Of a DNA stretch of 64,000 nucleotides, positions 15,305 through 54,497 are shown piece by piece. Within the stretch, counting starts at the first letter, position 1, and the number at the start of each line of letters is the position of its first letter. A model generated the notes under the pieces. That model saw only the letters and a program-made list of their open reading frames with translations, had not been told where the DNA came from and made no database searches. Origin of the DNA: an uncultured Thermodesulfobacteriota bacterium (lineage in GTDB: Bacteria > Desulfobacterota > WTBG01 > CAIYCZ01); contig CAZQKW010000004.1 of NCBI GenBank assembly GCA_964594075.1, positions 38,171 through 102,170 on the forward strand, read 5' to 3'. The position numbers and the translations under genes are program-made.

Positions 15305-15379
15305 GTCATTCTGAAGGAGCGTGGCGAGAGAAGAATCTATGGTAGAGGTGTTGAGATTCTTCGCGTTGCTCAGAACGAC
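15305..15379. repeat. REP-like 26-bp element, inverted pair
   Basis: GTCATTCTGAAGGAGCGTGGCGAGAGAAGAATCT ... GAGATTCTTCGCGTTGCTCAGAACGAC. Confidence 0.6.
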
Positions 15380-15507
15380 AGGTGCATATGGCCTTATGTT
15401 CTGCGCTGAAATAATCTTTCCCTGTTTTCCTTAAATGATGCCGCGCATCATACAGACGGTGGTTAATTATTGACAATACCTTGCGGCAGGAAAGGAGCAC
15501 CATAATA

Positions 15508-16647
15508 ATGTTTGGCAATCGTGTAACGCTGTTCAAGCTGTTTGGCTTTGCGGTGCGGGTGGACGCAAGCTGGGTAGTGCTTGCCGTTCTGATTACCTGG
15601 TCTCTTGCCAAAGGATGGTTTCCCTATACCCTGCGCGGCCCCTATTCCGCCAATGTGTACTGGTGGATGGGCATCGCCGGTGCCATTGGCCTGTTTGCAT
15701 CCATCATCTTTCATGAACTGTGTCATTCGCTGGTTGCACGCAGATTCGGTCTGCCCATCAGCGGCATCACCCTGTTTATTTTTGGCGGCGTCGCCGAGAT
15801 GGAGGATCAGCCGCAAAACGCCCGCGTAGAATTTTTCATGGCAGCTGCAGGGCCGGCATCAAGCTTTGTGCTGGGCGGCATCCTGTTCGGCATACATTCG
15901 TTTGGATATGCCCAGGGATGGCCGCTCCCAGTAACCGTTGTTTTAAACTATTTGGTTTATCTCAACCTGCTGCTGGCTGCCTTTAATCTGGTGCCCGCCT
16001 TTCCGCTTGATGGCGGGCGCATCTTGCGGGCCGCGCTGTGGGGCTGGAAGGGCAGCCTACGCTGGGCAACCCGCATTGCGTCACAGACCGGCTCCTTGTT
16101 CAGTATCATGCTGATTCTGTGGGGATTCTGGGCGATCCTGACCGGAAATTTTATCGGCGGCTTGTGGCGGGTCATGATCGGTATGTTCCTCAAACGCGCT
16201 GCGGACATGTCCTATCAGCAGGTTGTCGTGAGCCGGGCATTACAGGGCGAACCGGTGAGCAGATTTATGCGAGAGAATCCGGTCACGGTGCCGCCGCAGA
16301 TTACCATTGCGGAACTGATTGAGGACTTTGTGTATCGCTACCATTACAAGATGTTTCCCGTGGTGGACAACGGCAGACTGCTGGGCTGCATTGCCACGCG
16401 GCAATTTAAAAACCTGCCGCGGGAGGAGTGGCGGAGCGCCACCGTTGCGTCCCTTATGGAACACTGTTCCCCGGAGAACAGCATTGAGCCTGATGCAGAC
16501 GCCATACGGGCGCTGGCAAAGATGAATCAGACCGGGGCCTCGCGGCTGATGGTGGTGCGCGGCGAACGTTTGCTCGGCATCATTTCATTGAAAGACCTGC
16601 TGCAGTTTCTGTCTTTAAAAATGGAACTGGAAGGTGCTGACCGATGA
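15508..16647 (+). CDS. site-2 protease family (M50) zinc metalloprotease with tandem CBS domains
   Basis: HELCHSLVA (HExxH), FNLVPAFPLDGGRIL (LDG motif) and two C-terminal CBS-like repeats. Confidence 0.85.
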   Translation: MFGNRVTLFKLFGFAVRVDASWVVLAVLITWSLAKGWFPYTLRGPYSANVYWWMGIAGAIGLFASIIFHELCHSLVARRFGLPISGITLFIFGGVAEMEDQPQNARVEFFMAAAGPASSFVLGGILFGIHSFGYAQGWPLPVTVVLNYLVYLNLLLAAFNLVPAFPLDGGRILRAALWGWKGSLRWATRIASQTGSLFSIMLILWGFWAILTGNFIGGLWRVMIGMFLKRAADMSYQQVVVSRALQGEPVSRFMRENPVTVPPQITIAELIEDFVYRYHYKMFPVVDNGRLLGCIATRQFKNLPREEWRSATVASLMEHCSPENSIEPDADAIRALAKMNQTGASRLMVVRGERLLGIISLKDLLQFLSLKMELEGADR

Positions 16648-16650
16648 GTG

Positions 16651-17340
16651 TTAGCTGCTTTTTTCCTTGCGGTAGAGCAGCACTGCTTCTTCACCGACAA
16701 TTGTGATGATTAGGGTGAGGAGATAGCGCAGCCCGAGTTCTTTGCCCACCGTCCAGGCAATCTGCCGGCCGTAATACCAGGGATTGGTTACATTATATGC
16801 TCCCCAGGCAAGTTTGCGCGCAGTATTGACAAACCGGTTCCCCAACACCTGGGTAATTTTGCTGTCCTTAATTCGCTTATACCCGCGGTGAAGATACAGA
16901 ATTTCTGCCACCGTGCGGTCGCGCACTATGGTCAGGGGAACGCGGTTCAGATAACCCTCAACGCGCTCAACGACCCGCCGCACCAGATGCAACAAGCCGG
17001 CCACCGTTGCCTGATACAGGGGCTCATCCTTATCCGGAAAGTAAATGGATGCAATTTTTATCACCAGCTCCCGCGAAAGTTCAAACACAGACTCACCTGA
17101 CAGCTCGGTCTGACTGCTAAAATTCATCCAGATTCTGTTCCGCTCTTCCTCAATGATTTTATACGCAGCGTCATCCTCCAGAGTCATTTCTTTAATTCTC
17201 TGAAAGGGCACCTTGTTAAGCGAATCCATCTCTTCCTCAAGGTCCTTGATCTTTTTCTTCTCCCGCCAAATCAGAAACAGCAGCAGACAGGAAATTATTG
17301 CAAACAGCCCAATGATAATAATATACTGATACTCAGCCAT
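16651..17340 (-). CDS. hypothetical membrane-anchored protein
   Basis: N-terminal TM helix followed by a KKKIKDLEEE coiled segment. The Shine-Dalgarno GGAG supports a start at 17340. No family recognised. Confidence 0.45.
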   Translation of the reverse strand: MAEYQYIIIIGLFAIISCLLLFLIWREKKKIKDLEEEMDSLNKVPFQRIKEMTLEDDAAYKIIEEERNRIWMNFSSQTELSGESVFELSRELVIKIASIYFPDKDEPLYQATVAGLLHLVRRVVERVEGYLNRVPLTIVRDRTVAEILYLHRGYKRIKDSKITQVLGNRFVNTARKLAWGAYNVTNPWYYGRQIAWTVGKELGLRYLLTLIITIVGEEAVLLYRKEKSS

Positions 17341-17488
17341 GCCGACTCCGTGTGATTCTTTGTATGATAAACGCAACGAGAAAGATACGGTTTATTTTCG
17401 CGGTGAACAAAATTGCCGCAATTATTTTTTTAAACAATATGGTAAATGAGTTAAGTTTGCAATATAAACTCGGGGCGTAAACCATATC

Positions 17489-18151
17489 ATGCGTTTCATT
17501 ATTGATGCCTATAATGTTATCAGAACTAATCCTGAGGGCAAGCTGATTGAAAGCCGGCAGGGAAATCTCCCGGCACGCGCATGGCTTATAGATTTATGCC
17601 GTGCTGCGGTCAGGAACGGGGAAAAATGGATCGTGGTCTTTGATGGCGACGGCACGGCTACGGCAGAGCAGGTTCACGGCGGCACCCTTGAAGTGCGCTA
17701 CGCCACGCCGCAAACTGCAGACGAGGTTGTTCGCCAACTGGGGGAAGATGCAATAGCCCTGAAGATATCCGCGCGCATTGTTTCATCAGACGGCGAAGTG
17801 CGGGTTTCGGGATGCGAACACGTGGACAGCCAGTCATTTGTGGAATTTCTTAACCGGAGAAAAGTAAAAGGCGACCGGCCCAAGTCCCCCTCAAAGCAAG
17901 CCCTTTGTGAAAACATACTGAAAACCCTTGCAGAAAAAAGGCATATTCCTATGGACGCTATATCATACAAACTGAAAGATGAAGTAACTGAATGTATTTC
18001 CTATCTCTTCGCGCGAAATTTAGCGCCGCAAAAAATGGCGCGGGAAATTGAAAAATATTTAAGAGACCTCCTGCCGTTACAGCCAAACCCTGATCCCCAG
18101 AAAGAGGTCTTCCGGATAATAAAGAGCCGTATTGAATCCCTAAGCCGATAG
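17489..18151 (+). CDS. NYN/YacP-like (PIN-related) predicted RNA-binding protein
   Basis: MRFIIDAYNVI...VVFDGDG resembles the YacP/NYN N-terminus; 220 aa. Confidence 0.45.
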   Translation: MRFIIDAYNVIRTNPEGKLIESRQGNLPARAWLIDLCRAAVRNGEKWIVVFDGDGTATAEQVHGGTLEVRYATPQTADEVVRQLGEDAIALKISARIVSSDGEVRVSGCEHVDSQSFVEFLNRRKVKGDRPKSPSKQALCENILKTLAEKRHIPMDAISYKLKDEVTECISYLFARNLAPQKMAREIEKYLRDLLPLQPNPDPQKEVFRIIKSRIESLSR

Positions 18152-18448
18152 CCCCTTTTTTCACCCTCTTCATAACATCTAACCCCTTTTTTCCCAATTA
18201 ATATCCTCGCGGACATTTACTTTTATCAACAGCTGCAAGATTAAAAACAAAATACTTAAAATTAGTCTCATATAGGTTGCAAACTTCAACATAGCAATAA
18301 TAAACAATTATTTAGCAATAATATAATATTATATAGCATTATGCCTTATTGACTTTTAACGATATTTATTGATATAATTTACTCCAATTAAATAACAAAA
18401 ATTACTTAAATTAATATAAATTAACTCTTACAAGCTCATCCAGCACTT

Positions 18449-21310
18449 ATGCGCAAAAATTTTTATCTTCCATCCAGCTTTTTCCCCGGGCGTTCCTGCC
18501 TGTTTAAAATACTCTGCACAATAATTCACGGTATCTTAATAATCAGTTCTACACCGGTTGGCGCATCCTGGGAATGGCTGAATCCCTTGCCTCAGGGGAA
18601 TAATCTCTATGGTGTCTGGGTTAATACGTCAAGCGATGTTTTTGCGGTGGGCGCAGCAGGAACTATTCTGCATTATAACGGCAGCGAATGGACCAGTATG
18701 GCAAGCGGTACGTCGCTATCGTTATATGCGGTCTGGGGGACTTCGGGAGCCCATGTGATAGCCGTGGGGGACAAGGGAACTATCCTGCGCTATAACGGCA
18801 GCTCTTGGAGCAGCATGACCAGCGGCACAACCGCAGCTCTTAATGCCGTCTGGGGCAGCGCGCCTCATAACGTGCTTGCGGTAGGCGCTAATGGCGCCAT
18901 CCTGCGCTACGACGGCAGCTCCTGGAGCGCCATGAACAGCGGGACCAACAAATCGCTGTATGGCGTATGGTGCAGCTCCGCTACCAGCGCATGTGCCGTG
19001 GGAGATGACGGCACTATTCTATATTACAACGGCAGCAAGTGGAACGGCATGAGCAGCGGCACGACAACCTGGCTCAATGCCGTCTGGGGCAGTTCTGACA
19101 GTAACATATTTGCGGTTGGCGCCTCCGGCACGATCCTGCGTTACAACGGCAGCTCCTGGAGCAGCATGACCAGCGGCACTTTTGAGTGGCTCAGCGGCGT
19201 GTGGGGCAAGTCTGACAGCGATGTGTTTGCAGTGGGCGATAACGGAGATATTTTGCATTACGACGGTCTTTCCTGGAGCACCATGGCCAGCCCCTCAAAC
19301 GCCTGGCTAAATGCGGTCAATGGAAGCGCAGACGGCAATGTGTTTACGGTGGGGTTGTCCGGTGAAATCCTCGCCTTTGACGGCAGCACCTGGAGCAGCA
19401 TGACCAGCGGCACGACAACCTGGCTCAATGCCGTCTGGGGCAGTTCGGGCAACGATGTGTTTGCGGTGGGCGATAGCGGCACCATCCTCCACTACGACGG
19501 CAGCTCTTGGAGCAAAATGATCAGCACTACGCTTAAACCTTTATACGCGGTCTGGGGCAGTGCAAACAACAACGTGTTTGCGGTAGGCGATTCAGGAATT
19601 ATCCTGCGCTATAACGGCAGCACCTGGAGCAAAATGACCAGCGGCACCAGCAAATCGCTGTATGGCGTGTGGGGCAGTTCGGGCAACAACATATTCGCAG
19701 TGGGTAATGGCGGCACGATCCTGCGTTATGACGGCAGCACCTGGGTCAGCATGAGCAGCGGCACAACTATCTGGCTCACTGCCGTCTGGGGCAGTTCGGG
19801 CAGCGACGTGTTTGCGGTGGGCGACAGCGGTACCATCCTCCACTATGACGGCAGTGCCTGGAGCAGCATGATCAGCAACTCATTAGCATTGCTGAGTGGT
19901 ATCTGGGGCAGTTCGGCCAGCGACGTGTTCGCAGTGGGCGATAGCGGCGCCATTCTGCACTATGATGGCAGTATCTGGAGCGCCATGGCAAGCGGCACCA
20001 CCGCATGGCTTAAAGCAGCCTGGGGAGTTTCCGGCACTGATGTCTATGCCGTGGGAACCTCGGGCATTATTCTTCGCTTTGACGGCGGCACCTGGGTCAG
20101 CATGTCCTCACCCACAGCAAAGTCCCTTATGGGTATCTGGGGCATGGCTCAAGCAGATCTGTTTGCTGTGGGTGAAGGAGGCACCATTCTTCACACTATA
20201 GACAGCGGCGGCAGTAATACCACCACAGCCCCGTCAACCACTACCAGTATCGCAGATACCACCACCACAGAGCCAACCACGACGACCAGCATAGAATCCG
20301 GCCCATCAACAACAACGACCGAGCCGTCAACCACCTCCAGCAGCGTCGAACCATCCACTACGACAACAACCGCTATTTCCGGGGTGAGCATTGTCAATAT
20401 TACGCAGGACTGGTCAGGGGCAAGTGATGTAACCCTCACCTGGGAAAGCAGCGTGGGGCAGAGCTATTCCATCTTGCTGAAAGATGAATTCAGCGGCTCA
20501 TTCATCGCCGTGGATACGGTTGCCGGAAATCAGGGCACCACCTCCTGGACTGATAATGGCGTTTGGCCTGGCGGAACGCACCCTTCAACCGTTTCGCAGC
20601 GTTACTACAAAGTTTCCGCAAGCGGCATAGAGTCGCACAACACGGTCGGCATCTACCGCATCACCGTGCAGGAAGGCATGAATCTCATATCCCTACCGCT
20701 CATACCGTTCCGATCAGACCTGGTGAATGTGATAGGAAGCCAATTGACGGGCGCGCCAAATGAAGGGGACGCCGACCGCCTCTGGGTATGGAATGGAAAC
20801 AATTACGAATTTGCCTGGCTGGTGGAAGGCGTGGGACCACCCTATGACGGAACGTGGTACACCGGTAATGCCGAAACCGCGGTTACACTGGGCGCCGACC
20901 GCGGCGCATGGGTGCAGGTGCGGCCAGGACACGGGACGCAAACGGTCTATATCGCAGGTGAAGTTGCCGCAGCAGCACGTATTATTCCGCTGGCAACCGG
21001 CATGAATCTGGTGGGAAGCAGTTACCCAGTTGCGGTGCCGCTGGGCGACCAACAGAGCGATGACAGCAATCTGTGGGAAAGCGGGGCAACCGGTGCAGAT
21101 AATGAAGGAGATGCAGACCGGGTGTGGAGCTGGAACGGATCACATTATCAGTTCCACTGGCTGGTGGACCACGTCAATGCAACGCTTAACGGAACGTGGT
21201 ATTCGGGAAACAGCCCCAGCCCGCTCGCTCTTGAACCGGGGAAAGGATACTGGGTGCAAATCCGCGCCAATCATGCGGGTTTTACCTGGACCTATCCCAA
21301 ACCATATTGA
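18449..21310 (+). CDS. large secreted repeat protein: ~14 x 40-aa Asp-box/BNR-like beta-propeller repeats, Thr/Pro-rich linker, FN3-like segment, duplicated C-terminal ~90-aa domain
   Basis: The repeat unit is L.AVWGSS..DVFAVGD.GTILHYDGS.WS.M.SGT; the DGSxWS part resembles the sialidase Asp-box SxDxGxTW. The linker reads TTTAPSTTTSIADTTTTEPTTTT. The C-terminal duplication is NEGDADRxWxWNGxxYxFxWLV...GTWYxGN...WVQxR. Confidence 0.8.
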   Translation: MRKNFYLPSSFFPGRSCLFKILCTIIHGILIISSTPVGASWEWLNPLPQGNNLYGVWVNTSSDVFAVGAAGTILHYNGSEWTSMASGTSLSLYAVWGTSGAHVIAVGDKGTILRYNGSSWSSMTSGTTAALNAVWGSAPHNVLAVGANGAILRYDGSSWSAMNSGTNKSLYGVWCSSATSACAVGDDGTILYYNGSKWNGMSSGTTTWLNAVWGSSDSNIFAVGASGTILRYNGSSWSSMTSGTFEWLSGVWGKSDSDVFAVGDNGDILHYDGLSWSTMASPSNAWLNAVNGSADGNVFTVGLSGEILAFDGSTWSSMTSGTTTWLNAVWGSSGNDVFAVGDSGTILHYDGSSWSKMISTTLKPLYAVWGSANNNVFAVGDSGIILRYNGSTWSKMTSGTSKSLYGVWGSSGNNIFAVGNGGTILRYDGSTWVSMSSGTTIWLTAVWGSSGSDVFAVGDSGTILHYDGSAWSSMISNSLALLSGIWGSSASDVFAVGDSGAILHYDGSIWSAMASGTTAWLKAAWGVSGTDVYAVGTSGIILRFDGGTWVSMSSPTAKSLMGIWGMAQADLFAVGEGGTILHTIDSGGSNTTTAPSTTTSIADTTTTEPTTTTSIESGPSTTTTEPSTTSSSVEPSTTTTTAISGVSIVNITQDWSGASDVTLTWESSVGQSYSILLKDEFSGSFIAVDTVAGNQGTTSWTDNGVWPGGTHPSTVSQRYYKVSASGIESHNTVGIYRITVQEGMNLISLPLIPFRSDLVNVIGSQLTGAPNEGDADRLWVWNGNNYEFAWLVEGVGPPYDGTWYTGNAETAVTLGADRGAWVQVRPGHGTQTVYIAGEVAAAARIIPLATGMNLVGSSYPVAVPLGDQQSDDSNLWESGATGADNEGDADRVWSWNGSHYQFHWLVDHVNATLNGTWYSGNSPSPLALEPGKGYWVQIRANHAGFTWTYPKPY

Positions 21311-23132: not shown

Positions 23133-23154
23133 ATACCGCTCATGAGCGCGCGTT

Positions 23155-23224
23155 AGATTCCTCTGTCGCCACCGCTCCTCAGAATGACACCATGGTGGGA
23201 ATTCTTCGCTTCGTTCAGAATGAG
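23155..23224. repeat. REP-like element, two tandem copies
   Basis: AGATTCctctgtcgccaccgctcCTCAGAATGAC ... GGAATTCTTCGCTTCGTTCAGAATGAG. Confidence 0.55.
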
Positions 23225-23414
23225 ACTTTTTCACCAGCCGGTTAGAAGCACAAATGCCAGAAAAGAAAGGCAGGGTCAATAATGGCCCTGCCTTTATCAT
23301 TTGAATTTCGTTTACCAGTCCATGCCGATTTAGAACCTCTTGCAGCGGGTTGAATAGGCACGAAATGAAATATCAATCACAACTGCCGAAATGCCCCTTC
23401 GCTGTGCATGGGGA

Positions 23415-26021
23415 TCACTGGTGCACCTTTATTCCGAACGTGCTAAAGATTGTCTTATTCTGCATATCGCGTTTGAGCCTGCTGAGGTCCTCCTTGAGGG
23501 CAGGACTTGCCTGATTCTTCAGAGCGTCTATCAACGCAACAGTTTCTTGTATGGTGCCTTTTGATATTACGGTCTTTCGCTTTGTAAGAAAAGCTTCTGC
23601 AACCGGCATAATTTTCCGGATAAGGCTTTGTGCCCTGTTTTTCATTCCCTGATCAGCAGCAAGAATGGCACTCAGTTCAGAAGCATTTTTATAATACAGC
23701 CCGACATAATAACCCCCCAATCCATTCTTTCCGGCCAGACGGTTTCTCACCCCGCGTAATTTTGTTAAATCTTTGCTGTTTTGCCCAAGAACGGTTTCGG
23801 CAGGGCAAATCGAAGGTATCGTCGTAGTTGTCGTGGGGGTTTTTGATAACTCTACCGATGAGCAAAAAACATAATCCAATACGATTCCAGGATCATTGGT
23901 AGTGAGTTCAATAGCGTATGTTCCTGCTCCTAAATACCTATTCATAGTGGCAATAAATGGATACGAATCATCGCATTTGGAGGCAGTCAGTGCTGCTTCA
24001 GCGGGAGTGTTTCCTTCGTACAGATAAAGACATAGCCCTTCCTGTTCAGACGTGGCGTCTAAAACAATGATCGTCGGATTGATTAAGGTAAAATAGAAAC
24101 GATCAGCATAGTGTGCATCTTCATAATGAACACTTGCCCAGTCAGACTTTCTCAGGCCGCCTTCATAAGCGTAGGAAGAACATTCAGCCTGAGTTAATGG
24201 CACTGATGAAATGATACTGTAATCTGTTGCTACTTTGCGGTCCTCGGTTGTCAGCTCAATAGTATAGGTTCCCGCTCCCAAATACTTGTTAATCTTGGCA
24301 ATGTATGGATATGCGTCTTTGCAGTTTGAGGTTATTAATTCGGCATTAGAGGGGTCACTCCCGTTATAAAGATACAAGCACAAGCCATCCTGCTCAGATG
24401 CAGCATCAACAACAAGAACCGTGGGACTGGTTAATGTAATCGTATAGAGGTCGGTATAGTGCGCCTCAGCATAATGGACGCTGAGACAATCAGGTTCCTG
24501 AAGTGTTCCCGGATAGGTATATACCGTGCTTTCAACCTGACTCAATTCCACCGACGAACGAAACGTATATTCCAATGAGATCTTTGGATCGTCGGTGGTG
24601 AGTTCAATAGAGTAGGTCCCCGCGCCTAAAAATTTGTTCACCTTTGCTACAAAAGGATAGGTGTCGTCACAGCTTGAGGCGATGAGCTCCGCACCGGACG
24701 GCTTGCTCCAGTCATACACATAGAGGCAGACACCCTCCTGTTCGGACGTGGCGTCTAAAACAATGTTGGTGGGGGTAGTGAGAGTAAACGTATAGAGGTC
24801 GGTATAGTGCGCATCATCATAATGGACGCTGGGCCAATCGGACTCTTCAAGATTACCCTGATACGTGTAGGAAGAACAACCAACAGGGCTTAACTCAATT
24901 GATGAGCGAAACACATAATCCAATGAGATTTTGGGATCATCGGTGGTAAGTTCAATGGTGTAGGTCCCGGCGCCCAGAAATTTGTTCGTCTTGGCTATAA
25001 ACGGATACGTATCTTTACAATCAGAACCAATAAGCTCTGCACCGGACGGCTTGCTCCAGTCATACATATACAGGCACACGCCATCCTGTTCAGAGGTTGC
25101 ATCTAAAACGACGTTGGTCGGGCTGGTCAAGGTAAAAGTATACAGATCGGTATAGTGTGCATCGGTGTATTGAATACTCAAACAATCAGCATCTTGAAGT
25201 TTTCCCGGGTAGGTGTAGGATGCACATTCAACCTGGCTAAGCGGCACTGACGAGACAAATACATAATCTGGGGAAACCTTTGGATCATCAGTGGTGAGTT
25301 CTATGGAATACGTGCCTGCCCCTAAAAACTTGTTTATCTTGGCAATAAAGGGATAGTTGTCATTACAGTTTGAGGCAATTAATTCTGATCCTGACGGCTT
25401 GCTCCAGTCATACACATACAGGCACAGGCCTTCCTGTTCTGATGCAGCGTCTAAAACAACAACCGTGGGAGTCGTCAAGGTGAAAGTGTAGAGATCGGTA
25501 TAGTGTGCATCGGAGTAGCGGATACCCAGACAATCAGACTCTTCAAGTTTTCCCGGATAAGAATAGGAAGTGCACGCAACCTGAGTCAGTTCTACCGGGG
25601 CGTCAAGAATATACGACAATGACACCTTGCGGTCATTGGTGGTGAGTTCAACAGAATAGGTTCCCGCGCCTAAGGGTATGGTATCTCTCAGTGGTATCCG
25701 TGGCGCAAAAGGATATACATCATCACAGGTATTGTAAATTAACTCAGCACCCGACGGGTTGCTCAGGTCATACAAATACAGGCACATGCCCTCCTGTTCA
25801 GACGTAGCGCTTAAATAAATATTCGCAGGAGCAGTCAGGGTGAATGTAAAAAGATCTGTATAATGCGCGTCAGCGTAGCGGATACTGAGGCAATCAGGCT
25901 CTTCAAGGGTGCCATTTATAGTGTTACTCTGGGCAGGGATAATGAATAAAGATAGGCTCAGAATAATAAATAGAACGGAAAACTGAATGAGTTGTAATAT
26001 TTTTTTCAATGCTTTTTTCAT
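23415..26021 (-). CDS. secreted protein with 7 tandem ~123-aa PPC-like (pre-peptidase C-terminal) domains, Thr-rich linker, shared C-terminal domain
   Basis: Repeat unit DCLSIRYxDAHYTDLYTFTLTxP...DATSEQEGxCLYxYDWSKPSGAELIAS.C.D.YPFIAK.NKFLGAGTYSIELTTDDPK. Linker TPTTTTTIPS. C-terminal domain LYYKNASELSAILAADQGMKNRAQSLI. Has a signal peptide. Confidence 0.8.
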   Translation of the reverse strand: MKKALKKILQLIQFSVLFIILSLSLFIIPAQSNTINGTLEEPDCLSIRYADAHYTDLFTFTLTAPANIYLSATSEQEGMCLYLYDLSNPSGAELIYNTCDDVYPFAPRIPLRDTIPLGAGTYSVELTTNDRKVSLSYILDAPVELTQVACTSYSYPGKLEESDCLGIRYSDAHYTDLYTFTLTTPTVVVLDAASEQEGLCLYVYDWSKPSGSELIASNCNDNYPFIAKINKFLGAGTYSIELTTDDPKVSPDYVFVSSVPLSQVECASYTYPGKLQDADCLSIQYTDAHYTDLYTFTLTSPTNVVLDATSEQDGVCLYMYDWSKPSGAELIGSDCKDTYPFIAKTNKFLGAGTYTIELTTDDPKISLDYVFRSSIELSPVGCSSYTYQGNLEESDWPSVHYDDAHYTDLYTFTLTTPTNIVLDATSEQEGVCLYVYDWSKPSGAELIASSCDDTYPFVAKVNKFLGAGTYSIELTTDDPKISLEYTFRSSVELSQVESTVYTYPGTLQEPDCLSVHYAEAHYTDLYTITLTSPTVLVVDAASEQDGLCLYLYNGSDPSNAELITSNCKDAYPYIAKINKYLGAGTYTIELTTEDRKVATDYSIISSVPLTQAECSSYAYEGGLRKSDWASVHYEDAHYADRFYFTLINPTIIVLDATSEQEGLCLYLYEGNTPAEAALTASKCDDSYPFIATMNRYLGAGTYAIELTTNDPGIVLDYVFCSSVELSKTPTTTTTIPSICPAETVLGQNSKDLTKLRGVRNRLAGKNGLGGYYVGLYYKNASELSAILAADQGMKNRAQSLIRKIMPVAEAFLTKRKTVISKGTIQETVALIDALKNQASPALKEDLSRLKRDMQNKTIFSTFGIKVHQ

Positions 26022-26219
26022 GGTTTCCTCCTCGGTAGTTTAAAATTTTTTCTTCGTTTATTAAATAAAACTTAAAATTATATAATCTAATTGTTAAACA
26101 GAAGTCAATTGAAATGTTGGCAACAATAGATGAAAATAGTATAAAATTTAATAAGGATAATGAGTAACAATTCGCTACTCCACAGGGATTCACATTTTCA
26201 AACACTTTAAGGTGTGATT

Positions 26220-28226: not shown

Positions 28227-28327
28227 ACGTGCCCTCCTTAAAAACAGTTTTTAAAAATAGATAAATGCCTAACCTATTGAATGACCTGTCGGTTGCAGCA
28301 TTACGCGTGTTAACCGGGTGTCCCCTT

Positions 28328-28393
28328 GTCATTCTGAACGTCGCGAAGAATCTCAACACCTTTGCCATAGATTCTTCAGCCGCTACCGCTCAC
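28328..28393. repeat. REP-like element, inverted pair
   Basis: GTCATTCTGAACGTCGCGAAGAATCT ... AGATTCTTCAGCCGCTACCGCTCAC. Confidence 0.55.
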
Positions 28394-37806: not shown

Positions 37807-37890
37807 CATGGCTGCCACTCCTTATATTTTTATTATTATATTTATTATTGAGGTAATTGCAAAAGTATTCAAAAATGGGATTACAGAGTT

Positions 37891-37956
37891 TCGCTCGCAA
37901 TGACAAATGGCGTCTGTGCGGTCATTGCGAGGAGAATAGCGACGAAGCAATCTCAA
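37891..37956. repeat. REP-like element, degenerate inverted pair (within tad locus intergenic)
   Basis: TCGCTCGCAATGAC ... GTCATTGCGAGGAGAATAGCGACGAAGCAATCTCAA. Confidence 0.45.
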
Positions 37957-38058
37957 TAAATGAAACTTTTGCAATTGGCTCTCATTGTATAAGTATTATC
38001 GTTTAATTCAAGCGTTTCTTTACCTGTCTCTCTTGCCGCTGTCTCGTGACTCATCCTT

Positions 38059-40346: not shown

Positions 40347-40448
40347 CCCCCTTTGCTAAAGTTGATAATGTTACAAAACGCAACTCTACAAAACGCAACC
40401 CTAATTTATGTTATGTTAAAAACATATCTGTTAAACGCTTCGCCCCCT

Positions 40449-40474
40449 AGATTCTTCGCTGCGCTCAGAATGAC
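40449..40474. repeat. REP-like 26-bp element
   Basis: AGATTCTTCGCTGCGCTCAGAATGAC. Confidence 0.65.
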
Positions 40475-40495
40475 AGCGAGAGGCATGCTTCACCA

Positions 40496-41413: not shown

Positions 41414-41427
41414 ATGGATTCCTTTTT

Positions 41428-41458
41428 ATATAAACTTCCCCTATCACTTTTAATGATA
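41428..41458 (-). terminator. inter-pilin hairpin (putative attenuator/terminator after flp2)
   Basis: CTTCCCCTATCA-CTTTTA-TGATAGGGGAAG perfect 12-bp stem, followed on the minus strand by a U-rich run. Confidence 0.4.
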
Positions 41459-41488
41459 GGGGAAGTTTTGTGTATGGGTTAATTGCTA

Positions 41489-41662
41489 TTACTGACCTGC
41501 CTGTCCTACCTCGGTTGCAACTGAATCAAATTTTGTGCTTAAGTTCTGACCGAGCAAGGTGACAGCTGCGATGATCACGATCGCAATTAAGGCTACCATA
41601 AGCCCATATTCAACTGCGGTAGCTCCTTCTTCATCACGAAAGAATTTTTTTAAGCGTTCCAT
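41489..41662 (-). CDS. flp: Flp-family type IVb pilin (57 aa), not in ORF track
   Basis: Hand translation: MERLKKFFRDEEGATAVEYGLMVALIAIVIIAAVTLLGQNLSTKFDSVATEVGQAGQ. Shine-Dalgarno GGGAGAA. First gene of the tad operon. Confidence 0.85.
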   Translation of the reverse strand: MERLKKFFRDEEGATAVEYGLMVALIAIVIIAAVTLLGQNLSTKFDSVATEVGQAGQ

Positions 41663-42058
41663 AATTTTCTCCCTTTTAAAAATTGTTTGTGTTTAAATAA
41701 TAGAAAACCAAAAAACCATTTGTCAACTAATTTTTTCACCTCCTTTCTAAAATTATTTCCAATAAATCATTAAAAAATGTTTCTTGCCATATATTATCGT
41801 AAAAAAAATTTTTAATGTCAATTGAAATCTTTGCAGGCATTTTTTACATTTTTTAAAAAAATAAACTTATTTACCAGGTAAAAAATGGCTTTGTATTGAC
41901 CCAAAACCATTTAATCATACCTTTGTAACCTGACTCTCTAAAGCTACTATCTCATTCAACAATGAACTGCAGTGATTATTAAAACATAAAGTGCTGTAGA
42001 TCTGGTGGCGCAATGGCAATCTTTTAAAACTTAAATGCGCACAGGCTGTTGAAAAGGT

Positions 42059-42084
42059 GTCATTCTGAACGAAGTGAAGAATCT
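42059..42084. repeat. REP-like 26-bp element (reverse orientation)
   Basis: GTCATTCTGAACGAAGTGAAGAATCT. Confidence 0.6.
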
Positions 42085-42364
42085 CAACTTTAGCACGGCT
42101 TGGCAATTCAAAAAGGTAAGACTGAATCCCGCATCACACCCTTAGTCCTATCACGTTTTTCAACAAGCCGATAAACGGTAACAGGTTTAATATGGTCGCA
42201 TAAAAAAATTCAATGTTTTTAATTATAGGTTTAACTTTATTAAATGCAAGGGCAAAATTTTTATTTTGTTTGTAATAAGAAGAAGAAAAATGGCCATAGA
42301 AAAAAATATATGTATTAAATCATCTTTTAGGAATTTTCCTGATTTCATCAATTCAAGGAAAGTG

Positions 42365-43855
42365 TTAATCAAAGGAACGGCTAAAAAGGGCGGCACCAGA
42401 ATCACTATATATTTGTTTCCAGCCAAATTCTTTATTCAAGGCGCCGGACAGTTTAGACCCATTTTTTATAAGTATCAAGTTGGGCGGATACCTGGTTAGA
42501 AAGTCCTTCCAGCCTCGCCGGCAAAAAATGAAATCAAAGTATTCTCTGGTTATGCGTTCCGGGTAAACCTGTTCATATCGACCATCAAGAGAAACACGAC
42601 AAAGGGGGTGCAGTTCCCAAATTAGATATTCTCCCCAATGAAACTCAGTTAATATGTTTCCGGACAACTCCTGTTCTTTGATATAATTAACTGCACCTGA
42701 TGGATAAAAAACGCTAAATTTTTTATCTTTATTTGGCTGCGAAGGAAGTGTCAGGCTCATGGGGTTCTGATTTATAATTTTTACCGTCAAAATGAGCGCC
42801 AACACTACAGCGCAAGCTGTGGGGGTTTTCCAGCCGATGCGATCCTGAATCCCTCTAATTAACACATCCGATTTCATTGCATTTAAAAAGTCTGACAGCC
42901 AGACCGGCATATAGGCACCGGCAAGCAACAGAAAAAAACAAATATGCCGTTGCTGTTTCAGCCCTAAAAAGAGGGTTAAACCTAAAACCAGATAGACTGT
43001 CAGTTCGCGCGGTTTACGCCATAATAATAGCAGGACTAAAAAAATAATTATGAACAGTATATAAATAATCGCGAAATTGTTTAATACGCCGTATTTGTAT
43101 CCCGCGTAAACAGAGAACCATTCGATTAGCTCTGGACGGGGCATTGGCAAAGATCGAGCAAAAAAACGCCAGTACTCAATGCCGTATGGATTTATAAGCG
43201 TTGCAAGAGATGAAAAGACGAGAACCATGACATACGGGACAAACGGTTTGCGGGCTATTGCTTCCCCTGCTGCATATAAAGCAAGCAGTCCAAGCCCAAC
43301 CAAGAAGCCGCCGTGCAGGTTACACCACAATATCTGAGTGGGAATTATCCACCATAAAATCTGCCATCGTCTTGTTGTTCGGGTAGTTTCCAACAAATAA
43401 AGCGTCACGGCAAAGAAAAAAAAAGTAAAAATCTGTGCTCTGACTGGACTGTACCCAAAATCAAGTATGCCGCCGATTGCAATTAAAATAAGTACGGCTG
43501 AATAGTAGTTGGCACCGCGTCTTACCGCAGTTAAAAATATAAACCCCATGGTTGCCAGCCCAATGCTGTATTTAAGCAACTGCAAGGCGGCAGCCCCAAA
43601 TTTCTGATACAGCGGGAAAAAAAGCACCCCGGTAAGCCACTCATGAAAAACCCACGTATCATGCGTCGGAAGGTAGGCAAAAATATCTTTATATGGGAAC
43701 TTGCCGGTTTCCCAGAACAGCCTTCCAAACGTCAGGTAGCCCCACAAGTCTACATCTGCGACTGTGTAAGTCAGAACATAGGCAGCAAACACCAGATACA
43801 ATAACGAGAGAACGGTTTTTTTAACTAAATCTATGAAGTTATTTCCAACCTGCAT
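42365..43855 (-). CDS. polytopic membrane protein, putative GT-C-type glycosyltransferase (family uncertain)
   Basis: About 12 TM helices, then a roughly 150-aa C-terminal soluble domain. Confidence 0.45.
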   Translation of the reverse strand: MQVGNNFIDLVKKTVLSLLYLVFAAYVLTYTVADVDLWGYLTFGRLFWETGKFPYKDIFAYLPTHDTWVFHEWLTGVLFFPLYQKFGAAALQLLKYSIGLATMGFIFLTAVRRGANYYSAVLILIAIGGILDFGYSPVRAQIFTFFFFAVTLYLLETTRTTRRWQILWWIIPTQILWCNLHGGFLVGLGLLALYAAGEAIARKPFVPYVMVLVFSSLATLINPYGIEYWRFFARSLPMPRPELIEWFSVYAGYKYGVLNNFAIIYILFIIIFLVLLLLWRKPRELTVYLVLGLTLFLGLKQQRHICFFLLLAGAYMPVWLSDFLNAMKSDVLIRGIQDRIGWKTPTACAVVLALILTVKIINQNPMSLTLPSQPNKDKKFSVFYPSGAVNYIKEQELSGNILTEFHWGEYLIWELHPLCRVSLDGRYEQVYPERITREYFDFIFCRRGWKDFLTRYPPNLILIKNGSKLSGALNKEFGWKQIYSDSGAALFSRSFD

Positions 43856-43903
43856 TTTCCTAAATTACCGGAAGAGTTTTACTGCGCATCAAAACAGACC
43901 GTG

Positions 43904-45559
43904 TTATGTCTCTATCTTATAAAGGAAGACTGCCATATACCAAATTCCCTGGCCAAACCTGTTACTACTCCCCCGAAAGGTGAAAGGCCAGCTCTTTTCT
44001 AGTCGCAGATAATTGGCAGTGCCACTGCCAAATAGCTTGTCCGCAAGCTGTTTCAGTTCTTTGTCCTCGCCATTCTCAATAAGGCCATGATTTACCAAAT
44101 AGGCAATACCCTGCTTTTTCAGCAGCTCTCCGGCGGTTCCATGTTTTAGGGCATTCGCATAAACTATGGAGTTTACCACCCCATCAATATTGATTATTTT
44201 CTGGGAGGTAAAATAGCCAATGACGCCTGCATCCCAGGATCCAAGAATGGCATTTGGGGACAGATTTTTTGAAATCCACTCGCCGGCTTTTTGATTAGTA
44301 ATGCACATGGAAAGGAATCGTGGATCAACCACACTCGAATTCATTGCAATCACACACAGAGCTAATGGCGCTGAGATGACCAATTTAACTTTTATCAGCG
44401 AAGATTTATGTGGTTGATACCGCAAATCATCCTTTCTGGCAGTGTTAAAGATATCAATGACAGCACATAAAAAGATGAGAAAAACATAGAGCACAAGGGG
44501 GCCAAAATACCAAAGCTGCGGAAAGACTTGCATAATGGTGTAATACACAATAATCAGACAGCAAAACACTGCAAACCACCACGTGCGATTGATAAATTGT
44601 CTTAGACAGGGGAAGTTCGTTTTATTCTTCTTTGCCGGCAGATTAAACCTTGAAGCATGTTGTGTAGGCAATTTGCCCCAGTTTTTAAAAAGCCTTCCGA
44701 TTATGCCGGAAAGGAGCAGGCCGACTGCAAGAACACCTGTCCTGCTGAGCGTTAAAGGAATGCGTTTTATTTCACCGCTAACCTGCCACGGACTTCCAAA
44801 GGTATTATAATTAAACAGAATAAATAGAACAACAGCAGCCACAGGCAGGATAAAAAGCTCTGCAAGGCGACCCAATGATTTGAACCCTAATGAGACTGCC
44901 TCAAGCAGACAACAGATTCCTAAACAAATTAATAATAATACGGCATCGGTCCGCGATAGAAAGCAAAGCATCCCTATTCCGCCCACTAGTATCCGCCAGC
45001 GTGGAGAAGTATCAGACAAAAACCTACTCTGTCTTATTATTGATTGGAATAGCAGAAAAGTATAACAGAGGGCATAAGCCGCTGATTCCAACCCATTTAC
45101 AAATGTTCTTAAAAATAAAGGGCTGGCAGCTAACATTGCAAACAAAACCCAGATTGTTCTAAATGCATTTTTTGAGCGCGATGCATATGCTGACGGATCT
45201 ATTTCAGGTTGGCTCTGTGAAATTATGATATTAATGATATGCCCCATTATCAAACAGACGCATAGCCACAGAATAATTTGGCCGGACAACAAAATGCGTA
45301 CTGCGGTCAGCCCATCGAAACCGAACCAGTAAACAGGAATACATATAAGCAACCAGAGAGGATGAAATCCATTGGTCGGATTTATTCTATCAAAAGTAAA
45401 GCCATATCCCTGCGCTACATTGCGGGCAATTTCAAAATAATAAAAAGCATCATCAAAACAGAGAACATACGGTGTATATTCCCAGAGCCAGATCGCCAAT
45501 AGCCATCCACAATAAAGTGAAAGTAAAATTAAATAAAATTTCTTAGTAAAGACTGTCAT
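43904..45559 (-). CDS. polytopic membrane protein, putative GT-C-type glycosyltransferase (paralogous architecture to upstream gene)
   Basis: N-terminal DDAFYYFEIARNVAQGYGFTFD-like first-loop motif as in the ArnT/PMT/PglL class, many TM helices, and a C-terminal soluble domain. Confidence 0.5.
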   Translation of the reverse strand: MTVFTKKFYLILLSLYCGWLLAIWLWEYTPYVLCFDDAFYYFEIARNVAQGYGFTFDRINPTNGFHPLWLLICIPVYWFGFDGLTAVRILLSGQIILWLCVCLIMGHIINIIISQSQPEIDPSAYASRSKNAFRTIWVLFAMLAASPLFLRTFVNGLESAAYALCYTFLLFQSIIRQSRFLSDTSPRWRILVGGIGMLCFLSRTDAVLLLICLGICCLLEAVSLGFKSLGRLAELFILPVAAVVLFILFNYNTFGSPWQVSGEIKRIPLTLSRTGVLAVGLLLSGIIGRLFKNWGKLPTQHASRFNLPAKKNKTNFPCLRQFINRTWWFAVFCCLIIVYYTIMQVFPQLWYFGPLVLYVFLIFLCAVIDIFNTARKDDLRYQPHKSSLIKVKLVISAPLALCVIAMNSSVVDPRFLSMCITNQKAGEWISKNLSPNAILGSWDAGVIGYFTSQKIINIDGVVNSIVYANALKHGTAGELLKKQGIAYLVNHGLIENGEDKELKQLADKLFGSGTANYLRLEKSWPFTFRGSSNRFGQGIWYMAVFLYKIET

Positions 45560-45713
45560 AAATTATAGTGAACTATTTATTTAATCATCCAGAAATAAAA
45601 GGCAGAACCATTGCTGACTCTGCCTCGTTCTTTTTTTGTCCTACCTCTTTACCTTTTAATCAATCCACATTTTTCGACCTACCTTACCAAAGCACGCATA
45701 ACGATTACCCTGT

Positions 45714-47105
45714 TTAACACTCCGGTTCACACTGGGGCTGGCCGCAGCCGCCGCAACCGGGGTCAACGTCGCACACATCGCCAACGCCGTCGTTATCCGC
45801 ATCCATTTGTTGCGCATTGCAGTTATCCGGGCAATTGTCGCAGCTATCGGGCACGCCGTCACCGTCCCGGTCTGGAAACACACAGTCACCCAGAGCAAAC
45901 GGGGTGGCAGGAGGAATAATAACATCCACCGGAAGGGAACTGTCAATTATTGTATTATTGCCAAGCTGCCCTTCAGAATTATCGCCCCAGGTTTTCATGG
46001 TGCAGCCCGCAGGAATCGCCGCAGTATGAAAATTTCCGGCGCCAATGCTGATGGCAGCGCCGATGTTCAAAACCGCTACCGGCACTTTTCTCAAGGTCTG
46101 GGTGCCGTCGCCAAGCTGGCCATCGGAATTCAGACCCCAGGCCCATACCGTGCAGTCGCTCCTGAGCGCTGCTGAATGATACTTTCCCGCAGCGACCGCC
46201 TCGACATTACTTAACGTGCTGACTTTTACTGGCATGGTTTTATTGGTGAGGGAATTGATGCCAAGCTGCCCGCTTTCATTGAGCCCCCATGCCCAGACGG
46301 TTTTGTCAGCCTTGATAGCCAGATTATGCCACCCGCCGGCTGCAAGCGCCACAACGCCGGTAAAGCCACCGCCGCCGGCATCAAGGACCTGCACCGGAGC
46401 TAATCGGGTAGTGGTGGTATTGTCTCCAAGCTGTCCGTATTTATTAACACCCCATGCCCAGACCGTGCCGTCGCTTTTAAGCGCAATGCTGTGAAATGTG
46501 CCGGCACCTATTGCTACGACCCCGCTCAGCCCGCTCACCTGAGTTGCTTTGGTTTTGTCTCGGGTTGACCCGATGCCAAGCTGCCCATAATTATTGCGTC
46601 CCCACGCCCAAACCGTGCCGTCACTCTTTAATGCCAGCGAGTGATATTCGCCGCCTGCGATCGCAACCACCCCGCTCAAACTGCTTACGACCACCGGTGT
46701 TGTTTTGTCTTTTGTGGTGCCGTCGCCAAGCTGCCCATAAAGATTTGATCCCCATGCGCGGACGGTGCCATCGCTTTTAAGCGCCAGCGTGTGAAATGAA
46801 CCGGCAGCAACTGCGACAACACTGGTCAAACCGCTCACCTGCACGGGTGTCAGTTTGTCTATGACTGTCCCGTCGCCAAGCTGGCCGGAGGCATTTGCAC
46901 CCCACGCCCAGACCGTGCCGTCGCTTTTAATGCTTACTGTGTGCCATTCCCCGCCTTCCATCATGGGCTCTGACTGCGCCCATGCCGGGCCGGCTGCAAA
47001 AATGCCCAGCACGAAATAAAAGGACATGATTATGCAGCACATTGTTTTTAGTTGAATGGACCTGCTATGTTTCATAAACGGTGCCCTCCTTTGAAAGGGG
47101 TACAT
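45714..47105 (-). CDS. secreted RCC1-repeat beta-propeller protein with C-terminal thrombospondin type-3 Ca-binding repeats
   Basis: Seven units of AWGxNxYGQLGDGT (RCC1). C-terminus DRDGDGVPDSCDNCPDNCNAQQMDADNDGVGDVCD (TSP3-like). Has a signal peptide. Confidence 0.8.
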   Translation of the reverse strand: MYPFQRRAPFMKHSRSIQLKTMCCIIMSFYFVLGIFAAGPAWAQSEPMMEGGEWHTVSIKSDGTVWAWGANASGQLGDGTVIDKLTPVQVSGLTSVVAVAAGSFHTLALKSDGTVRAWGSNLYGQLGDGTTKDKTTPVVVSSLSGVVAIAGGEYHSLALKSDGTVWAWGRNNYGQLGIGSTRDKTKATQVSGLSGVVAIGAGTFHSIALKSDGTVWAWGVNKYGQLGDNTTTTRLAPVQVLDAGGGGFTGVVALAAGGWHNLAIKADKTVWAWGLNESGQLGINSLTNKTMPVKVSTLSNVEAVAAGKYHSAALRSDCTVWAWGLNSDGQLGDGTQTLRKVPVAVLNIGAAISIGAGNFHTAAIPAGCTMKTWGDNSEGQLGNNTIIDSSLPVDVIIPPATPFALGDCVFPDRDGDGVPDSCDNCPDNCNAQQMDADNDGVGDVCDVDPGCGGCGQPQCEPEC

Positions 47106-47156
47106 AAAGATTGCGGTATTGTTGAGGTGTTGAGTTCTCCATTGGTTGCTAACTCA

Positions 47157-47222
47157 AGATTCTTCGCTGCGCTCAGAATGATAAGTATTATCCCGGAGAT
47201 TCTTCGCTGCGCTCAGAATGAC
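47157..47222. repeat. REP-like element, two direct copies 15 bp apart
   Basis: AGATTCTTCGCTGCGCTCAGAATGA occurs twice. Confidence 0.7.
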
Positions 47223-47361
47223 CAAAAGGCAATGAAGGGAAAGCAATTTTGGGTTTTGTTCATTATACGCCTGTTGCTTTACTATGGTCAAATGTAATCT
47301 TGGCAGGTCTTTGCCACTATCAGCATCAAATAACAGGTTTTGAGAGGCTCATGCGGGCACT

Positions 47362-53773: not shown

Positions 53774-53788
53774 ATATGTGGTGATGAT

Positions 53789-53816: not shown

Positions 53817-53822
53817 ATAGTT

Positions 53823-53896
53823 GAGGGTGTGAAACCCCTCATGTTCCCCTCTTTTTTTACCCCTGGAACGAGTAACATCGTCCAGGGGTTTTTTTA
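53823..53896 (+). ncRNA. candidate small RNA (~75 nt) bounded by promoter and terminator
   Basis: After the promoter: 5' hairpin GAGGGTGTGAAACCCCTC, a U-run, then a terminator hairpin CCCCTGGAACGAGTAACATCGTCCAGGGG followed by TTTTTTT. No ORF. Confidence 0.35.
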
Positions 53897-54002
53897 TGAC
53901 CCACAACCATGGGCACCGTGATATTCTCCACACCCGCAAAGGTTATACACCCGACCTCCCCTAACCTGTCCTCAGAGGGCCTGTGTCGTAATGGCATTAG
54001 AT

Positions 54003-54028
54003 GTCATTCTGCACAAGGTGAAGAATCT
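54003..54028. repeat. REP-like 26-bp element (reverse orientation)
   Basis: GTCATTCTGCACAAGGTGAAGAATCT. Confidence 0.55.
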
Positions 54029-54247
54029 TAATTGCGACTCAGCCTCCTATCAAGGAGGGGAAAAGTTATCACGTCGGCGCATGGTGCCCCGGGCAGACAG
54101 TGCACCATGCAACGGAACCTGCCGCTGCGCAGGTGCTGAGCGGTGGGGTTATGGCTCAGGAAAACCACCGTGCGCTGATAGTTCACGATGCTTTTTTAAT
54201 TAAAAACGCACGGGGAACATAGATGAAGTCGTCTTGCCGCAAAATTT

Positions 54248-54388
54248 TCAATTGTTTTTTTGCTCAGAGAGTCTGGAAAGGACCTCAATATTTTCACGCA
54301 TGCGCTTTTGTGTCGCTTTAAAGTTAGCCTTGTTTTTGCTCCGTTTTCGTTTGCGGATAGATTCAGTCTTTGCAGTATTTGATGCCAC
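54248..54388 (-). CDS. possible small basic protein (46 aa, GTG start)
   Basis: GGAGG Shine-Dalgarno 9 nt upstream of a GTG start. Translation VASNTAKTESIRKRKRSKNKANFKATQKRMRENIEVLSRLSEQKNN is Lys/Arg-rich and ribosomal-protein-like. Not validated. Confidence 0.2.
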   Translation of the reverse strand: MASNTAKTESIRKRKRSKNKANFKATQKRMRENIEVLSRLSEQKNN

Positions 54389-54470
54389 TACCTATTTCCT
54401 CCTTTTTCCCTTCAGTATTCTCAATAATTAATCAAGATGCAGAAAAAATTGTTATTTCAAAAGTAATGTT

Positions 54471-54497
54471 GCGATTCTTCGCTGCGTTCAGAATGAC
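54471..54497. repeat. REP-like 26-bp element
   Basis: GCGATTCTTCGCTGCGTTCAGAATGAC. Confidence 0.6.

Follow-up and report, generated by a model that had tools for sequence, protein, structure and literature searches.

Dispersed intergenic hairpin repeats of a Thermodesulfobacteriota contig as probable members of the Ssn-related motif family

We analysed a 64-kb stretch of DNA from an uncultured Thermodesulfobacteriota bacterium (contig CAZQKW010000004.1, positions 38,171 to 102,170 of the forward strand; hereafter the window), which carries a hairpin repeat in 13–14 copies at nine intergenic loci, where chance would give none. Our results suggest, with a probability of roughly 0.7, that these repeats belong to the Ssn-related hairpin motif (SRM) family, like the Neisseria repeats NTS and dRS3 and the repetitive extragenic palindromes (REPs) tagged with CGTC or TGTC, and that they would act at the DNA level as recognition sites of the GIY-YIG nuclease Ssn, a small protein with a single domain. 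Two earlier studies (PMC3733652 and PMC11893778) have described systems of this kind; the apparently new part is the variant treated below, the GA-type hairpin, which the published SRM search pattern fails to match.

Oriented as TGTCATTCTGAGCGNAGCGAAGAATCTC, the unit has a 5' tag, TGTC, that stays unpaired. The stem is made up of five Watson-Crick pairs (ATTCT/AGAAT), a tandem of two G.A mismatches and two further pairs (RC/GY); it is capped by a GNA triloop and followed directly by a C. The general form of the unit is TGTC-AYNCY-GA-RC-GNA-GY-GA-RGNRT-C, and the site written as a single-stranded oligonucleotide reads TGTCATTCTGAGCGAAGCGAAGAATCTC. Counting the G.A pairs, the stem comprises nine positions, starts ATT...AAT and is followed by a tail of CTC, CTG or CCC. 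Among 90 distinct units there is no variation in the GTC that precedes the stem, in the A-T pair with which the stem begins or in the C that follows it. Conservation across phyla ends with the 27–28-nt unit, the information content of the flanks being about zero except for a T before GTC and a T or C after the final C.

Strong covariation supports a paired stem. The pattern GTCATTNNGARCGNAGYGANNAATC, scanned in species-representative genomes, was found in at least 120 stretches; among the matches listed, the free NN..NN stem positions are complementary in 142 of 152 (CT/AG 90, CC/GG 42, TC/GA 10), and the R and Y positions covary as well. With the looser pattern GTCA-N4-GA-N7-GA-N4-TC in loci chosen without the motif, 103 of 113 matches have all four free pairs complementary, comprising eight stem types, and 83 of the 113 contain the loop core GCGNAGC. 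In the alignment of the 90 distinct units, 96.3% of cells are paired and six of the seven pairs have changed on both sides, as opposed to 16–52% paired cells in slid controls; the stem columns of this alignment were partly preselected for pairing, but the two inner pairs were not. The core itself has a physical precedent, since GCGNAGC is a DNA mini-hairpin of unusually high stability (reviewed in PMC13037366) and d(GCGNAGC) has the same central seven bases as the consensus unit, although the work reviewed there is on synthetic oligonucleotides and their physical chemistry and describes no genomic repeat family. Nearest-neighbour folding predicts the hairpin shape of the unit, with little energy (-4.6 kcal/mol as RNA).

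Within the window, genes were taken from an open reading frame (ORF) map and from the JGI gene calls of the source contig Ga0394875_0000172 (124 kb, of which the window is a part), whose best protein matches bear Thermodesulfobacteriota or Deltaproteobacteria names. The initial annotation had proposed a dispersed 26-bp REP/MITE-like (miniature inverted-repeat transposable element) family, and the repeat is real: allowing up to three mismatches, the 26-mer gives six matches, compared with 0.00 expected from 100 shuffles. The covariance model R1, built solely from the 90 distinct units of other genomes, gives 11 matches with E values of 4e-8 to 0.03 (two at 15.3 kb, two at 23.2 kb, one each at 28.3, 40.4 and 42.06 kb, two at 47.2 kb, and one each at 54.0 and 54.5 kb), and the remaining copies were recovered by looser patterns and repeat finding. 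The proposed arrangements also hold, namely direct doublets at 47.2 and 23.2 kb and inverted pairs at 15.3, 28.3 and 37.9 kb, the first two of these being tail-to-tail and the third head-to-head. As had been claimed, every copy falls between genes, whether these are taken from the ORF map or from the gene calls of the source contig; the gene calls do not include the ORFs that run across copies, for example 15306–15611(-) and 47052–47297(+). TGTC is the 5' tag in eight of 13 copies, CGTC in one and GGTC in two, and two copies have mutated tags (ATC at 47182, CTC at 23224). Three copies match the cross-phylum consensus exactly, with the GCGNAGC core, while most others have variant cores such as ACGNAGY. 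The pair at 37891–37956 is real but divergent, with an ATTGC/GCAAT stem and an R1 E value of about 2; judged from the bases on its two arms, the change from ATTCT/AGAAT to ATTGC/GCAAT is compensatory. A gathering scan of the window against Rfam returned only tmRNA, and neither E-value scans of one repeat locus nor gathering scans of 11 hairpin loci revealed an Rfam family for the unit.

In other genomes the unit is associated with one particular gene. Among the matches listed, all three small GIY-YIG genes present in the 120 hairpin-selected loci lie at most 40 bp from a copy, inside copy clusters. In a reverse test, 80 metagenome loci were picked only for encoding a relative of that GIY-YIG protein, and 48 of them have a strict hairpin within 300 bp of the gene; hairpin density is 2.16 per kb near the gene and 0.106 per kb elsewhere in the same loci, corresponding to a 20-fold enrichment. 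Inverted flanking is preferred, with upstream copies tending to be forward and downstream copies reverse, and the arrays mix the stem variants ATTCT, ATCCT, ACCCT, ATGCT and ACTCT. At some loci the stop codon of the gene sits within the AATGAC of a reverse copy.

The encoded protein, some 95 aa long, comprises just one GIY-YIG domain (Pfam GIY-YIG), and NCBIfam has no model for it. Its sole homologue in an N. gonorrhoeae chromosome, 94 aa long and 46% identical, lies inside an array of about 20 NTS copies (CGTCATTCCCGCG...GGGAATC). Because this homologue shows the NTS-ssnA-NTS architecture of PMC11893778, the GIY-YIG set is, by sequence comparison, assigned to the Ssn family. A UPF0213/YhbQ/Slx1 label, suggested by a weak PDB match (1zg2, E=3e-6), was dropped in favour of Ssn (cd10448) after the comparison with Neisseria. 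GA-type units flank ssn on a Spirosoma plasmid, and the Ssn proteins of GA-type loci include WP_232563592.1 of Spirosoma oryzicola and WP_083616022.1 of Planktothrix agardhii. On P. agardhii plasmid p1 (L342, NZ_LR882964.1:17350-20616; L numbers denote our comparison stretches) an ssn-type gene is part of a defence island: it has six GA-type units around it, an MmeI-type restriction-modification gene on one side and the DISARM helicase gene drmA on the other. On the Azospirillum lipoferum plasmid AZO_p3 (L345), an ssn homologue and four canonical SRM copies are inserted between sufB and sufC of an Fe-S assembly operon.

Previous work on Neisseria provides the closest comparison. According to Chenal et al. 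(Nat Commun 2025, PMC11893778), about half of the dRS3 copies form a longer oriented motif, NTS (CGTCATTCCCGCGMAVGCGGGAATCYRG). They report that SsnA, a GIY-YIG protein (cd10448) of 94 aa and one domain, binds just one strand of NTS, and this only when the DNA is single-stranded, cuts a few bases upstream of it and does not bind the RNA form. Mutagenesis attributed a role in cutting to the three bases (GTC) before the palindrome and a role in binding to the C after it, and SsnA lowered transformation by NTS-containing DNA. The same study reports Ssn homologues across bacteria flanked by "Ssn-related motifs", with Ssn encoded in 81% of the surveyed genomes that have more than 200 SRMs. The GA-type hairpin resembles NTS and the published SRMs in its 28-nt unit with an unpaired YGTC tag, ATTC...GAAT stem and C directly after the stem, in its dispersed and almost always intergenic copies, single, paired or clustered, and, in other genomes, in its dense arrays on both sides of a ~94-aa single-domain GIY-YIG gene. 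Its invariant GTC and post-stem C are the very positions named by the Neisseria mutagenesis. It differs in having two tandem G.A pairs and a GNA triloop where NTS and the SRMs have a fully paired stem of 8–10 bp and a 4-nt loop, and in having mostly a TGTC tag and a CTC tail instead of CGTC and CCA or YRG. Around ssn, the Proteobacteria examined have the canonical type; GA-type units were found there in Cyanobacteria, Bacteroidota and many uncultured phyla.

A second published family shares the tag. Di Nocera et al. 2013 (PMC3733652) describe a REP superfamily with an unpaired terminal CGTC tag, in many repeats 'changed to TGTC' and with CCTC as a further form, whose groups CGTC-1 to -4 include Neisseria dRS3 and Rickettsia RPE-4 and RPE-6 and "apparently lack a dedicated transposase". 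Compared with this text description, the GA-type unit likewise has an unpaired CGTC/TGTC tag, a stem of 8–9 positions starting A-T, T-A, a short unpaired tail, extragenic and often dimeric copies and no associated transposase. It departs from the 4-5-nt loop and CCA tail of the CGTC REPs by its 3-nt loop, internal G.A pairs and CTC tail, and it occurs in far more phyla than the five covered by that survey.

By analogy with Neisseria, the tagged strand would be bound by Ssn when single-stranded, and cutting a few bases 5' of the motif would shorten or break incoming or exposed single-stranded DNA. Such cutting could in turn modulate recombination around the genes that are flanked by copies, and copies might spread by Ssn-dependent copying, as in the REP-associated tyrosine transposase (RAYT) system, or by recombination. 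We advance more tentatively, at just short of even odds, the idea that the GA-type hairpin forms a class of Ssn partner sites in its own right, present in most bacterial phyla, in candidate phyla and on many viral contigs and recognised by a separate Ssn clade with a new specificity for a non-Watson-Crick core (tandem sheared G.A pairs and GNA), and that in this Desulfobacterota lineage it expanded recently and now lies at the borders of surface-protein and pilus cassettes that can be exchanged.

Two further sequence elements accompany some units. Tandem arrays of 5' half-sites (TGTCATTCYGA plus about 10 pyrimidine-rich bases, with a period of 20–26 nt) lie immediately upstream of full units in several phyla (L028, L029, L054, L097, L107, L116, L129, L144, L147, L149 and L158). 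Repeated cutting and repair may have left them as footprints, as could be the case if the GA-type hairpin is a partner class of its own, or they may be arrays of binding sites. The other element is a module, CAGGCTGYNGAAAA or CAGGCTG(Y)NGAAAA, found 2–14 nt upstream of GTCATT in three window copies (42040–42057, 15278–15290 and 23225–23240) and in L012, L023, L060, L073, L105, L120, L250 and L264; REPIN-like inverted pairs in Acidobacteria and some viral contigs have this module at their outer ends.

Several observations weigh against the assignment to Ssn. As DNA the unit folds with only -1.9 kcal/mol, compared with -8.9 kcal/mol for NTS, and in thermodynamic folding of units and pairs the single units did no better than shuffles; what supports the hairpin is therefore covariation, together with published work on G.A and GNA motifs. 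The published SRM search sequence, HGTCWYN(0-2)YYVSBRHN(0-5)WNVSBRGN(0-2)RNCYNB, has no match among the 13 window copies or the 90 distinct units, and its two matches in the 80 ssn loci are probably due to chance. Neither the 64-kb window, nor the 9 kb past its right end (about 73 kb of contig), nor the fragments of relatives contain an ssn gene, and those 9 kb hold no further copy. None of the at least 120 motif-bearing viral stretches encodes an Ssn-type GIY-YIG protein, and we found no biochemical test of an Ssn enzyme paired with a GA-type hairpin in the literature consulted. As to the search sequence, it does match NTS and the ssn-flanking repeats of Neisseria, Photobacterium, Azospirillum, Sinorhizobium and Rhizobium, the last four of which have the fully paired form CGTCATCCCCGCGAAGGCGGGGATCCA with a CCA tail, and its failure on GA-type units is due to their G.A positions. 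Judged by sequence, then, the window carries an element whose kind is known but whose structure departs from the described form, and the published pattern misses it. If the repeats are Ssn sites, the enzyme would presumably be encoded elsewhere in this genome and, as in Neisseria, would cut them there.

The copies might instead be decaying relics of a past burst, or recombined imports, that now have neither partner enzyme nor function, which we regard as unlikely though not negligible. The absence of an ssn gene from about 73 kb of the contig and from the relatives' fragments fits such a scenario, as do the degenerate copies (a truncated arm at 28368–28393 and mutated tags at 23224 and 47182) and the copy upstream of the cold-shock gene; this copy is an old one, which seven relatives have at the orthologous position, each with its own substitutions. 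We also compared the window with syntenic DNA of relatives with 86–98% identical marker proteins. A relative at 88–90% (FWPV01000202.1) has no R1 match in 43 kb of syntenic sequence, compared with 11 in the window, and carries a different, ATTGC-type pair in its tadV-rcpC spacer. These counts, together with the three copies that are identical to the consensus, suggest recent gain, and the 81% co-occurrence in the published survey also argues against relics without a partner.

Turnover is visible as clean insertions or deletions. The DegP-M50 spacer measures 27 bp in the 88–90% relative and 220 bp, including a hairpin pair, in the window and a 98% relative; the spacer 15262–15507 as a whole is absent from L339 (88%) and present in L340 (98%). 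At 40.4 kb the insertion site is empty in the 95% relative L123, and L125 has a different ATTGC-type insert in the same spacer. Both multi-kilobase blocks that are specific to the window have a copy at or near an edge. Overall, the copies bracket the Tad pilus operon (28.3, 37.9, 40.4 and 42.06 kb) and genes for large repeat-rich secreted proteins, which, in this small sample, recalls the clustering of NTS around surface-protein genes reported in PMC11893778.

We next consider whether the repeats act in the transcript, as intrinsic terminators or 3' stabilisers of mRNA, a role that the initial annotation had offered and that we consider improbable. The intergenic position of the copies and an excess of convergent over divergent gene pairs (39 vs 24 in genome loci) would suit it, as would the copy at 54471–54499, which overlaps a terminator-like hairpin followed by a T-run. 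That site, however, uses a different stem and is the only one of its kind among the 13 copies; the other 12 have no T-run. Folding is weak as well, and several of the copies are located within operons or in front of genes. Over 240 loci, about 80–85% of copies fall outside crudely called ORFs of at least 120 aa, and orientation relative to co-directional flanking genes is random (32 sense and 38 antisense in genomes, 49 and 52 in viral contigs); both orientations occur even inside the tad operon of the window. PMC11893778 likewise reports no binding of Neisseria SsnA to RNA. Given the absence of orientation bias and the single terminator overlap in the window, the data point to a DNA-level element rather than a transcript signal. 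The lack of bias would also be compatible, if only indirectly, with an Ssn that acts on one strand as single-stranded DNA.

Equally improbable, in our estimation, is that the 26-mer is merely an internal module of MITEs moved by a DDE transposase acting at terminal inverted repeats. Some copies are indeed built into larger MITE-like composites, the clearest being the 157-nt insert at 37827–37983, which has 12-nt terminal inverted repeats and is cleanly absent from three relatives, and the module CAGGCTGYNGAAAA lies outside the hairpin in Acidobacteria and three window copies and forms the outer ends of REPIN-like pairs. Against this, conservation across phyla stops at the 27–28-nt unit, the unit at 40448–40476 arrived with only about 20 nt of additional sequence, the 157-nt composite shows no clear target-site duplication, and no transposase was found.

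Mobilisation by a RAYT, with the repeats as REP or REPIN elements, is close to refuted: these are short extragenic palindromes that occur singly, as doublets or as inverted pairs, that differ in presence between relatives and that form REPIN-like pairs commonly in other phyla, but their unpaired tag is TGTC or CGTC and not the RAYT-cleaved GTAG, and CGTC-tagged REPs are reported in PMC3733652 never to lie beside tyrosine transposase genes. No transposase family, and no tyrosine transposase, is among the recorded Pfam hits of the called genes of the window and its relatives or in a Pfam scan of ten ORFs, although the Y1 model was not scanned window-wide. Clusters of proteins encoded near hairpins in genome and viral loci include no dominant family and no transposase, but only phage structural proteins common to the members of one phage group, the recurrent neighbour clusters of the 240 loci having been inspected by sequence and not domain-annotated; the gene that recurs is that of the Ssn-family GIY-YIG nuclease. 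The initial annotation was thus right in recognising a REP-like dispersed intergenic palindromic family, whereas its suggestion of a cognate RAYT is not supported. The likeness to REP/REPIN-RAYT systems extends to vertical inheritance with slow decay plus lineage-specific expansion and, by analogy, to a small nuclease that recognises the hairpin in single-stranded form and has inverted copies on both sides of its gene. Those systems differ in their GTAG tag and in an HUH tyrosine transposase, of other fold and chemistry than GIY-YIG, and REP sequences vary between species while the GA-type unit is nearly identical across phyla.

This breadth also decides the proposal that the repeat is a useful signature of its lineage, which does not hold, since the same 25-mer occurs in metagenome-assembled genomes and cultured isolates of dozens of phyla and in viral contigs; by the same token, confinement to the window, which would have spoken against a dispersed family, was not observed. 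Among the phyla are Nitrospirota, Chloroflexota, Acidobacteriota, Bacteroidota (Hymenobacter, Pedobacter, Mucilaginibacter), Planctomycetota, Verrucomicrobiota, Omnitrophota, Bacillota, Spirochaetota, Desulfobacterota, Proteobacteria and candidate phyla. One GA-type unit with an upstream half-site sits on a contig assigned to a Nanoarchaeota bin (L055, JAHIPG010000372.1:2730-2754) and represents either an archaeal occurrence or a binning error. The exact GA-type pattern is present in at least 120 IMG/VR viral contigs (L208–L327). About 20 of these are one phage group with common structural proteins, and L285:3717-9746 carries 10 copies on a single strand.

The reading of the repeats as Ssn sites has practical consequences. 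They should be annotated as Ssn-type single-strand DNA hairpin sites and not as lineage-specific REPs or terminators. They also break assemblies and create spurious short ORFs; an independent assembly contig of the same organism (L002) starts exactly at the copy at 42059. Because the published SRM pattern misses the GA-type form, surveys that use it probably undercount Ssn/hairpin pairs outside Proteobacteria. Each such pair is a potential site-specific cutter of single-stranded DNA, and a site that depends on G.A pairs and GNA would be a new specificity. If the GA-type hairpin is indeed a partner class of its own, single-strand DNA restriction would extend well beyond naturally competent Neisseria. 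In the window, the positions of the copies suggest blocks that are exchanged between strains, namely the operon for the Tad pilus, the genes of large repeat-rich secreted proteins and the insert of two genes at 42–45.7 kb. The coordinates of all copies and associated segments are given in Table 1.

Table 1 Hairpin copies and associated segments of the window, with the basis for each.
Feature	Position	Strand	Basis or remark
Long-variant hairpin unit GTCATTCTGAAGGAGCGTGGCGAGAGAAGAATC, left arm of tail-to-tail pair, CTGTTGAAAAAA before it	15303..15339	+	R1 E=0.0017
Short GA-type unit GTCGTTCTGAGCAACGCGAAGAATC, right arm of pair	15353..15381	-	R1 E=6.6e-5
Window-specific block, 3.1 kb, 868-aa PPC-domain gene	23133-26242		
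Long-variant unit of direct doublet, left edge of block 23133-26242	23154..23190	-	R1 E=0.032
Short unit with mutated tag CTCATTCTGAACGAAGCGAAGAATT, preceded by GGCTGGTGAAAAAG	23196..23224	-	R1 E=0.0064 over 23201-23221
Short GA-type unit	28326..28354	+	R1 E=4e-6; pair common to 95% relative L123/L124, absent in L125
5'-truncated long-variant unit, decayed partner of 28326-28354	28368..28393	-	Alignment with intact L123 copy
Palindromic composite insert, 157 nt, 12-nt terminal inverted repeat AATTGCAAAAGT	37827..37983	.	Clean insertion vs L123, L125, L127
ATTGC-stem units, head-to-head in the 157-nt composite	37877-37906 (partial); 37919-37954	-; +	R1 weak, E about 2
Insert of 50 nt holding unit 40448-40476; flanks an imperfect 9-nt direct repeat GGTGAAGCA/GGCGAAGCG, 7/9 bases	40445-40494		Single example
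Consensus GA-type unit between prepilin peptidase and rcpC genes	40448..40476	-	R1 E=4e-8
Window-specific block, 3.8 kb, two genes of unknown function	41885-45715		Edges approximate
GA-type unit preceded by CAGGCTGTTGAAAAGG, near edge of block 41885-45715	42057..42085	+	R1 E=4.8e-8; synteny break
GA-type unit with ATC tag, first of direct doublet	47156..47184	-	R1 E=2e-6
Consensus GA-type unit, second of doublet	47196..47224	-	R1 E=1.2e-7
Diverged unit GTCATTCTGCACAAGGTGAAGAATC	54001..54029	+	R1 E=0.0003; orthologous diverged copy in L330
GA-type unit with CGTC tag, upstream of cold-shock gene	54471..54499	-	R1 E=2.6e-5; sole copy overlapping terminator-like site

Other features of the window were also recorded. 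Three large genes consist of long coding tandem repeats: 18449–21310 (period 117 nt, about 12 times), 23415–26021 (348 nt, six times, the PPC-domain protein) and 45714–47105 (150 nt, seven times, an RCC1-like protein). Two flp pilin genes with 75% DNA identity and a 34-aa ORF lie at 41240–41662, where the 90% relative L125 has one flp gene. The region 6994–9172 contains a tmRNA gene (tag peptide ADDYNYALAA) and, after it, about 1.8 kb that L339 (88%) lacks and that looks, from this comparison, like an insertion beside the tmRNA gene; this stretch holds a second cold-shock gene (7697–7897), with 70% DNA identity over 108 nt to the gene at 54953–55156. Finally, an 85-nt inverted repeat (55392–55476 and 63039–63123, 87% complementary) brackets a 7.5-kb block with a MarR gene, two Fe_bilin_red genes, ferredoxins, a B12-binding radical SAM gene and a PfkB kinase, which may be an invertible or transposed segment; in the relative L330 a related stretch is found directly behind the cold-shock gene.

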